Below, one piece after another: positions 11,454 through 12,236 of a stretch of DNA of 37,863 nt. The position numbers and the translations under genes were made by a program. Under the pieces are notes generated by a model. It saw nothing but the letters and a program-made list of their open reading frames with translations. It had not been told where the DNA came from and ran no database searches. How positions within the stretch are numbered: position 1 is the first letter of the stretch; each line of letters begins with the position of its first letter. Source of the DNA: a virus (lineage: Duplodnaviria; Heunggongvirae; Uroviricota; Caudoviricetes); IMG/VR virus record IMGVR_UViG_2684622552_000004, positions 1 to 37,863 of that record; one strand, written 5' to 3'.

Positions 11454-11954
11454 TTATTCGCTCCCGTCATCGCAATGTTCCTTCCGGTGGAAGTAATTCC
11501 AACCGTTCCACTTCGCCAACTGGTTACCACTACCAACAGGCATGCGGTTTGGATAACCGGACTTACATTTAGCGGCTTTTGCTCTGTCCATTGCAGACAG
11601 TTTGACGAGTCTCTCTTTCCCGTATCTGGCAGTGGTTATAAGTTTTGCAGACGCTTCCAGCGCATAATCCGGAGCAATGCGGCAGGCAAGGTTGAAAATG
11701 ACGGCATTGATAGCGTTATTTGATAAACCGTGTTCATCGCCAGGATCTGGAGCGACATCTGCATCAGCGAAAATGTAGCCAACGTTGATACCTGGTGACG
11801 CATCACCGCCAAGCCACTCAGCCATCATCATTTCAAGGTCGTTGACGCCATCTTCCATGGACTGCGGTTCGACATCGGTTAACGTGGCATTTGATGCCAC
11901 ACCGAGCTTACGTAATGCCGCAAGAACTAAATCACCCTTCGTTGTCAGGTTCAT
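11454..11954 (-). CDS. Head-to-tail adaptor protein (P22 gp4-like)
   Basis: [47 protein letters not shown]...[13 protein letters not shown] resembles P22 gp4; 166 aa from the internal ATG at 11954. The track's upstream extension reads the hexanucleotide repeat as SQSQSQ. Confidence 0.8.
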
Positions 11955-12001
11955 CTGCTGCCGCCTTAGGTTTTCGACCAGGCTTTTTACGCTGTTTTTC
12001 T

Positions 12002-12047
12002 TCTGGCTCTGGCTCTGGCTCTGGCTCTGGCTCTGGCTCTGGCTCTG
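12002..12047. repeat. Hexanucleotide tandem repeat (TCTGGC)x7.7
   Basis: Seven perfect copies plus a partial one, read directly. Lies between the coat and gp4 genes, inside a possible 63-aa ORF (11932..12123, GTG start) where it encodes (EP)7. Confidence 0.95.
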
Positions 12048-12236
12048 CAACATCCTTCAGAAGATCATCAGGATGTGCAAACCAGCCAGCATCCAGATAT
12101 TCCTGAAGCTCTTCGGCTTTCACGATTTCAAAGTCGTATCCAACGCCTTTCTACTTCTTCATGTCTCCATGACGAAAGATCATGTGTGTCATGCTTGTCT
12201 CCAGATAAAAAAGGGAGCCGAAGCTCCCTCTGGTTA

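Follow-up and report, generated by a model that had tools for sequence, protein, structure and literature searches.

The 37,863-nt IMG/VR virus record IMGVR_UViG_2684622552_000004 (hereafter the window, meaning the whole stretch of DNA analysed) contains late genes of a P22-like (Lederbergvirus-type) prophage on its minus strand, with a perfect hexanucleotide array in the gap between the coat gene and gp4. This array is probably a coding variable-number tandem repeat (VNTR) that changes in frame by slippage and forms a tolerant Glu-Pro spacer within a small late gene, rather than a phase switch. As judged from sequence comparison, the gene concerned is a homologue of P22 orf69 (family PHROG 1175) and a real late gene. 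An earlier note on this DNA had placed the array in a 63-aa open reading frame (ORF) with a GTG start; that ORF is the downstream remnant of the orf69-like gene, which is interrupted in the window by an amber codon.

The earlier note's description of the array itself was accurate. Tandem Repeats Finder reports about 7.7 perfect copies of TCTGGC in the coat-gp4 gap, which measures 282 nt, at 12002-12047 (period 6, 100% matches, score 92), and this is the top-scoring tandem array of the window. A probe of four units gave five overlapping matches at the array, and 100 dinucleotide-preserving shuffles contained no match. In minus-strand orientation the array reads (GAGCCA)7 from 12045 to 12004 and encodes (Glu-Pro)7, as had been proposed, and it is in this frame that the tract is coding. 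The Ser-Gln reading expected in the gp4 frame is likewise present, in an ORF at 11454-12053 that begins MLQSQSQSQ. The GenBank record of APC_JM3.2 already carries a repeat_region at the array.

The proposed 63-aa ORF does exist, at 11932-12123 on the minus strand, but it is not the gene itself, which starts at an upstream ATG with a good Shine-Dalgarno (SD) sequence. In the same frame and 27 nt upstream of the GTG there is a TAG (12153-12151), with nine codons between the two. Thirteen sense codons precede this TAG, back to an ATG at 12192-12190 that has GGAGA at 12202-12198 (5-nt spacer), and the in-frame translation of the region is MTHMIFRHGDMKK*KGVGYDFEIV-KAEEL.... Relatives encode 74-138 aa from the upstream ATG, again with a good SD, and the long ORF is annotated in APC_JM3.2, Bas106 and E. 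coli prophages processed by the Prokaryotic Genome Annotation Pipeline (PGAP). Where the window has TAG, the inspected relatives, including four aligned phages, have TGG (Trp), and a stop at codon 14 was found in none of 178 extracted related loci. In comparison to the E. coli H1 prophage, the window differs at two bases over 481 nt (99.6% identical), one of them being the G to A change at 12152. Because the amber codon at Trp14 interrupts the full gene in the window, the 63-aa ORF is a downstream remnant of an inactivated gene of 86 codons, and the window copy, which lacks an uninterrupted frame from the ATG, is a disrupted member of its family.

A lookup of the exact 63-aa product returned a single other contig, L221 (from an ENA metagenome), which carries a different lesion, a +1 A insertion, and not the amber codon. 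The same insertion (GAAAT to GAAAAT, at about codon 22) is present in an IMG/VR locus, L164. L164 and L221 have four and seven Glu-Pro units, respectively, and could represent one disrupted lineage in which the repeat is still changing, or else a recurrent change or a sequencing error. In the window, a second lesion lies 1.3 kb downstream of the orf69-like gene in gp10, an essential head-completion gene. Relative to the H1 prophage and APC_JM3.2, there is a 1-nt deletion at about 10683 (GCGCCGTC to GCGCGTC) that splits the gene, which encodes 472 aa in relatives, into ORFs of 291 and 213 aa. Together with the amber codon, the gp10 deletion brings the inactivating lesions in this 1.5-kb stretch of the late operon to two, which suggests either a decaying prophage or sequence errors.

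With the amber codon repaired, the predicted protein matches PHROG 1175 with an E value of 7e-37 (residues 1-84 on profile positions 1-72 of 72), compared with 4.5e-31 for P22 orf69 itself. Its first 51 residues also match PHROG 3769, and a BLASTP comparison with P22 orf69 gives an E value of 3e-9. The genes that occupy the coat-gp4 slot in P22 (orf69, 69 aa), Sf101 (gp06, 62 aa), Proteus phage Brookers (gp6) and epsilon34 (gene 6, 186 aa) belong to PHROG 1175 over their whole length or N-terminal part. A profile search of 1.84 billion representatives yielded 67 matches, including about 40 small proteins, 66-123 aa long, that are laid out in the same way. A second homologue search with a diverse alignment recovered mostly the same close relatives, and the diversity described here comes from the representative search. 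For the distant members P0180 and P0230, the gene is preceded by a coat gene (PF11651) and followed by an adaptor gene (PF11650), whose start it overlaps. A position between coat and gp4, with a stop codon that overlaps the gp4 start, was found in the window, P22, epsilon34, Sf101, Brookers and distant metagenomic members. The overlap is kept family-wide at 11-23 nt; in the window, the first 23 nt of gp4 overlap the 3' end of the orf69-like gene.

Purifying selection acts on the orf69-like gene. The ratio of nonsynonymous to synonymous nucleotide diversity (piN/piS) is 0.084 in a set of 45 unique N-terminal coding sequences, with 7, 2 and 21 segregating sites at the first, second and third codon positions, respectively. 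The corresponding ratio for gp4 is 0.059, and the same N-terminal DNA read in the wrong frames gives 1.9 and 1.3. Truly disrupted alleles account for two of 117 unique alleles. The scenario that the earlier note had named as its refutation, a neutral intergenic repeat, is excluded by this purifying selection on the flanks of the array.

Comparison across related prophages, which had been put forward as a check, revealed clear variation in copy number, from 1 to 33 units, and all of it preserves the ORF, as had been predicted for a 6-bp unit. Five phages have 2, 5, 6, 7 and 8 units, and four complete E. coli chromosomes have 7, 13, 24 and 33 pure GAGCCA units, in each case with the ORF intact and annotated, at up to 138 aa. 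For a larger sample, 89 IMG/VR loci were chosen by an exact 32-mer in the right flank, and hence independently of repeat length. With units counted as (tract - 2)/6, these range from 1 to 14 units: 1 (4 loci), 2 (15), 3 (10), 4 (10), 5 (7), 6 (13), 7 (8), 8 (3), 9 (6), 10 (3), 11 (1), 12 (3), 13 (3) and 14 (2). One further IMG/VR locus, L164, has its 1-nt insertion outside the tract. Additionally, 47 full-length rows spread evenly over 219 matching complete-genome records range from 1 to 33 units: 1 (4 rows), 2 (9), 3 (3), 4 (5), 5 (6), 6 (4), 7 (3), 8 (5), and one row each with 9, 10, 15, 16, 17, 18, 24 and 33. Unit numbers in these rows were inferred from the match span and are sequence-confirmed only for H1 (7), GPEC1446 (24) and 98195 (33). 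Over the 117 unique alleles, every change in repeat number is a multiple of 6 bp, and the sole change of frame is a 1-nt insertion outside the tract.

Of 98 flank haplotypes, each defined by identity over 817 nt, nine occur with more than one unit number (for instance, 2, 9 and 13); therefore, the tract changes faster than its flanks mutate. Variant units are single-base derivatives of GAGCCA, namely GAACCA (synonymous), GAGCAA (Glu-Gln), GAGTCA (Glu-Ser), GATCCA (Asp-Pro), GAGACA (Glu-Thr) and GAGCTA (Glu-Leu). This behaviour is standard for a slippage-prone repeat, and replication slippage is the presumed source of the variation. Since the unit is two codons long, every length variant stays in frame, and the array is thus a length polymorphism and not an on/off switch. 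Compared with a phase-variable contingency locus, it has the hypermutable tract but, with a 6-nt unit, not the switching of frame or promoter spacing. Of 5,426 complete E. coli genomes, 217 (about 4%) have the prophage that carries the locus. One matching replicon (H158, NZ_CP081786.1, 39,448 bp, strain 0H26) was deposited as a plasmid and may be an excised, circular phage genome; in the related strains 0H23 and 0H24 the locus is in the chromosome. One E. coli allele (protein P0010, 93 aa) has an internal 13-aa duplication just before the repeat.

From its N terminus, the encoded protein consists of a domain of about 45 aa that is confidently predicted to fold, an acidic linker that varies, and a basic tail. 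The Glu-Pro run starts directly after the N-terminal domain. In an AlphaFold model of a 1-unit allele, run with a 47-sequence alignment, residues 1-40 have a predicted local distance difference test (pLDDT) score of 82-91, with predicted strands at 2-14 and 17-25 and a helix at 26-34, and a further helix is predicted at 41-49. The linker and tail of this allele score 53-59 and have no predicted secondary structure. Gly36-Trp37 is invariant in 47 diverse homologues, and the N-terminal domain is recognisable at 25-40% identity across distant phages. A sequence-profile search of the PDB returned nothing below an E value of 0.2, and structure searches found no solved structure or annotated fold relative for the family. 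Pfam produced only sub-threshold compositional matches to the repaired protein, PARP and SPESP1. Procyclin/PARP (PF05887) was rejected as a candidate, as its 18.4 bits compare with a cut-off of 100 and the match covers only the Glu-Pro run.

Comparison with the best-known relatives locates the variability in the linker. P22 orf69 (P22gp06, previously named orf109, which lies between genes 5 and 4 and encodes a hypothetical protein) shares with the window gene its membership of PHROG 1175, its slot after the stem-loop that follows the coat gene and its overlap with the gp4 start, together with the N-terminal motif ..IYK.G...WG...V...EL.EY..GW..HP and the tail KGRKPKA. However, the two are 35% identical, and P22 orf69 has the short non-repetitive linker PVEADDV in place of the perfect (GAGCCA)n of 1-33 units found in the E. 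coli clade. Similarly, epsilon34 gene 6 and orf186 of ST64T and phage L (PHROG 3769, named by PGAP as WDGH domain-containing proteins) have the same slot, N-terminal domain and basic tail, but a WDGH domain of about 100 aa (PF25311, E value 1.7e-40) at exactly the linker position, instead of a Glu-Pro repeat. WDGH-type proteins of E. coli also keep the same N-terminal domain and basic tail, with PF25311 replacing the Glu-Pro repeat. The ORF is intact in natural alleles of 1-33 units, and a WDGH domain occupies the corresponding point in other relatives, which makes the linker a permissive spacer. Acidic dipeptide runs are found at the linker position elsewhere in the family as well, as Glu-Pro in 15 of 47 representatives, Glu-Gln in an Erwinia prophage and Glu-Ala in P0222. 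These WDGH domain-containing proteins, of about 186 aa, occupy the slot in the E. coli genome hits H165-H175 and at L005:357-917, in prophages that are 97-99% identical to the window in the flanking coat and gp4 sequences.

In distant members the tail reads KRRGRPPKA, KRGRPPKA or RRGRPK, which contain an AT-hook core, and in P22 it reads KPRKGRKPKA. RGRP is present in 6 of 47 representatives, and Pfam AT_hook is the sole match for three of the four RGRP members tested (14.0, 11.6 and 10.5 bits, against a cut-off of 17.4). The PKA codons of the tail (CCT AAG GCG) also carry the gp4 SD, TAAGGCGG, 6 nt before the gp4 ATG. The strand-helix-GW part of the N-terminal domain aligns with a module of about 35 aa from other proteins (hhalign probability 96.8%, E value 2e-10), over only 21 columns. 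This module, which ends in ELQ.YLD.GW..G and has no Pfam family, is found in 3-7 copies in the non-catalytic parts of homing-endonuclease-like proteins (P0186, P0193, P0197, P0199, P0200, P0202, P0205, P0208, P0211, P0217 and P0235). P0193 scores above the Pfam cut-offs for GIY-YIG and NUMOD3, P0197 has a sub-threshold HNH match, and a secreted repeat protein (P0192) has six similar modules.

These features are consistent with a model in which replication slippage would add or remove whole 6-bp units, and the resulting Glu-Pro run would be extended, disordered and nearly neutral in length. The run would then act as an acidic spacer between the folded N-terminal module and the basic tail, within a small protein encoded by a late gene of the head-completion region. 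A polyproline-II-like extension spans about 3.1 Å per residue. If the run is of this kind, the length would be about 4 nm for 7 units and about 20 nm for 33, and tolerance of this range would mean that the function cannot depend on precise spacing. With low confidence, the family may be a small nucleic-acid-binding accessory of the head-completion step, in which the N-terminal domain and an AT-hook-like tail would be two contact modules. This suggestion is based on the RGRP-type tail of relatives, the 21-column match to the homing-endonuclease module and the fixed place next to gp4. Translation of the gene through the gp4 ribosome-binding site might also aid gp4 expression. A more far-reaching version is very unlikely. 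In it, the family would be an overlooked, universal component of P22-type head modules, a small protein that binds nucleic acid by an AT-hook-like tail and an N-terminal module related to the tandem DNA-binding-region modules of homing endonucleases, and that acts at DNA packaging or head completion; in E. coli prophages the spacer would have turned into a hypermutable ruler, with diversifying selection on its length.

Other explanations place the function of the locus elsewhere. The gene could act mainly in cis: its translation beyond the stem-loop that follows the coat gene, and over the ribosome-binding site of gp4, would couple or tune gp4 synthesis, and the protein sequence would be of minor importance. 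Such a role would fit the family-wide overlap of the stop codon with the gp4 start, the strong SD that the gene has directly after the stem-loop and the position of the gp4 SD within the PKA codons. However, purifying selection on the amino-acid sequence of the N-terminal domain is as strong as that on gp4, the domain remains recognisable in distant phages, and gp4 has a reasonable SD of its own; as the main role, regulation in cis is unlikely, although an effect on gp4 translation is possible and would be compatible with a function of the protein. It is distinctly unlikely that the array is a contingency-type VNTR in which spacer length is under diversifying selection and hypermutability is itself selected, either because the spacer sets the reach between two modules or because it presents a surface that could be recognised by host defences. 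The very high allelic diversity with no dominant length would be expected under such tuning, as would the purity of the 24- and 33-unit alleles if a slippage-prone sequence were maintained, and the Glu-Pro, Glu-Gln and Glu-Ala runs arose or persist at the same position. In contrast, a 6-bp unit is unable to switch expression, the tolerance of 1 to 33 units and even of an inserted domain argues against a critical length, and recent expansion alone would also be expected to leave long tracts pure.

Two further alternatives concern which ORF is translated. A functional 63-aa product, made for instance by reinitiation after the amber codon, is highly improbable. The ORF is open, and in L164 and L221 the same GTG ORF remains after the +1 A insertion and is called by gene callers. 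However, no SD precedes the GTG, a product starting there would lose residues 1-23, which make up most of a predicted beta-hairpin (residues 2-25), the amber allele was seen in no other examined locus or contig, and the full ORF is kept in 98% of alleles. The least probable alternative is that the tract belongs to an N-terminally extended gp4, with a Ser-Gln repeat translated from the ATG in GATGTTG (12053). The gp4 frame is open from this ATG to the canonical one in 100 of 102 alleles, and the GenBank records of phages Dewey and Louie include the tract in gp4 genes of 594 and 588 nt. Nevertheless, 16 non-repeat codons that are open by chance are not significant, and the repeat unit is free of stops in every frame. 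For the same reason, the use of stop codons to discriminate between the Ser-Gln and Glu-Pro frames failed. In the 166-aa product with its start at 11954, the PF11650 domain extends over residues 2-161, and residue 1 of this product aligns with residue 1 of the 166-aa P22 gp4 (60% identical), which places the gp4 start downstream of the repeat, as the earlier note had expected. AAGG directly abuts the upstream ATG, which is without a spaced SD, the canonical ATG has its SD 6 nt upstream, PGAP and three other records call a short gp4 plus a separate small gene, and selection upstream of gp4 acts on the Glu-Pro frame. In the Dewey (L002:1777-2370) and Louie (L003:1778-2365) records, the orf69-like gene is omitted and a 45-aa ORF that overlaps the coat end is called instead. 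The extended gp4 of these records is probably an annotation artefact caused by the repeat.

Several observations weigh against the preferred reading of the locus. The neutrality of the length variation is deduced from tolerance, and the recurrence of acidic dipeptide runs in separate lineages means that spacer composition could be selected. The C-terminal piN/piS of 0.59 is uninformative, because the sites are few and selection by the exact 32-mer probe biases the sample. Conservation of the tail could come in part from the overlapping gp4 ribosome-binding site and start, and 21 of the 47 representatives are without any such tail motif. An AT-hook (PF02178) was rejected for the window protein, whose tail KKPGRKPK has GRKP without GRP and gives no AT_hook match at E <= 1. 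Sequencing errors could account for both the TAG and the gp10 deletion. Literature searches on orf69, orf109, orf186, the WDGH domain, Sf6 gp6 and prophage VNTRs returned no functional or expression data, including no experimental data on translation, virion association or function for any family member. They found no paper on the locus, its repeat variability or the function of orf69, and no literature on the WDGH domain.

Known repeat systems resemble the array in part. In TonB, a (Glu-Pro)n stretch followed by (Lys-Pro)n is thought to be an extended spacer between two functional parts. The window protein likewise has an alternating Glu-Pro run that adjoins a Lys/Pro-rich basic stretch, but the likeness is compositional only, as the protein has no TonB domains, membrane anchor or Pfam TonB match. 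The neuO switch comes from a 7-nt unit in a lysogenic-conversion gene; the window array, in contrast, has a 6-nt unit, never changes the frame and lies in a gene of the late head module. Like the window gene, neuO is a protein-coding gene with an internal VNTR. The nearest published prophage case found is that of CUS-3, a P22-like prophage of E. coli K1 to which phase-variable O-acetylation is linked (PMC3046976), with its neuO VNTR. The 6-bp VNTR loci used in multiple-locus VNTR analysis (MLVA) typing of E. coli and Salmonella include STTR5 and STTR6 (PMC5183578). The window array is like MLVA loci of this kind in its range of unit numbers and in changing faster than point mutations accumulate, and unlike them in being carried by a mobile prophage. 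It is a coding hexanucleotide VNTR of the MLVA-typing kind and reveals no new mechanism. No record was found in which the window locus serves for typing or is described as a marker for it.

P22 ranks among the best-studied systems of phage assembly, and an orf69-like gene is present in every P22-like head module examined. The locus provides a natural allelic series, in which the linker has 1-33 Glu-Pro units or an inserted WDGH domain, or the gene is, in a few cases such as the window, naturally knocked out. This series amounts to a ready structure-function experiment, which marks linker length as dispensable and the two ends of the protein as the functional parts. In practice, its high polymorphism makes the locus a marker by which P22-like prophages of E. 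coli can be tracked. Annotation errors also recur at the locus, where gp4 is extended through the repeat or truncated ORFs are called after lesions.

Table 1. Late-operon genes and sequence elements around the hexanucleotide array of the window.
Feature	Position	Strand	Context or evidence
Portal	14457-16622	-	Upstream of scaffold
Scaffold	13532-14443	-	Between portal and coat
Coat (major capsid), 431 aa	12237-13532	-	PF11651 P22_CoatProtein, E value 2.8e-166
G+C-rich stem-loop followed by T-run, terminator-like	12210-12231	-	Directly 3' of coat stop; terminator scan
GGAGA SD	12198-12202	-	5 nt before ATG of orf69-like gene; invariant in phage alignment
Full orf69-like gene, 86 codons plus stop, interrupted in the window	11932-12192	-	Translation, PHROG 1175, annotation of relatives
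Amber TAG replacing Trp14 (TGG); G to A at 12152	12151-12153	-	Comparison with E. coli H1 prophage
Coding region of conserved N-terminal domain, codons 1-48	12049-12192	-	piN/piS, AlphaFold, invariant G36-W37
GTG, internal codon Val24 of orf69-like gene	12121-12123	-	Translation
Perfect array (TCTGGC)7.7	12002-12047	+	Tandem Repeats Finder
(GAGCCA)7, (Glu-Pro)7	12004-12045	-	Minus-strand reading of array
Basic C-terminal tail, 10 aa	11962-11991	-	Aligned with KPRKGRKPKA of P22 orf69 and KRRGRPPKA of distant members
gp4 (head-tail adaptor/head completion), 166 aa	11454-11954	-	PF11650, E value 8.4e-59
gp10, split by 1-nt deletion near 10683	10036-11453	-	Comparison with E. coli H1 prophage and APC_JM3.2

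The stem-loop that follows the coat stop (Table 1) has a predicted RNA fold of -18.9 kcal/mol (z = -2.8) and is unchanged in four related phages, and the P22 record annotates a stem_loop at the matching place after the coat gene. Since there is no promoter-like site within 11400-12700 of the window, and the conserved stem-loop with its T-run lies between the coat gene and the orf69-like gene, the latter is most likely expressed by read-through of the late operon. Outside the late genes, at 26926-26954 and 26989-27020, the window contains two arrays of an 11-bp repeat, TGGACAACCGT, in 2.6 and 2.9 copies. They fall in a segment that aligns to the cII/replication-protein region of the H1 prophage and, by analogy with lambda, may be origin iterons inside the replication initiator gene.

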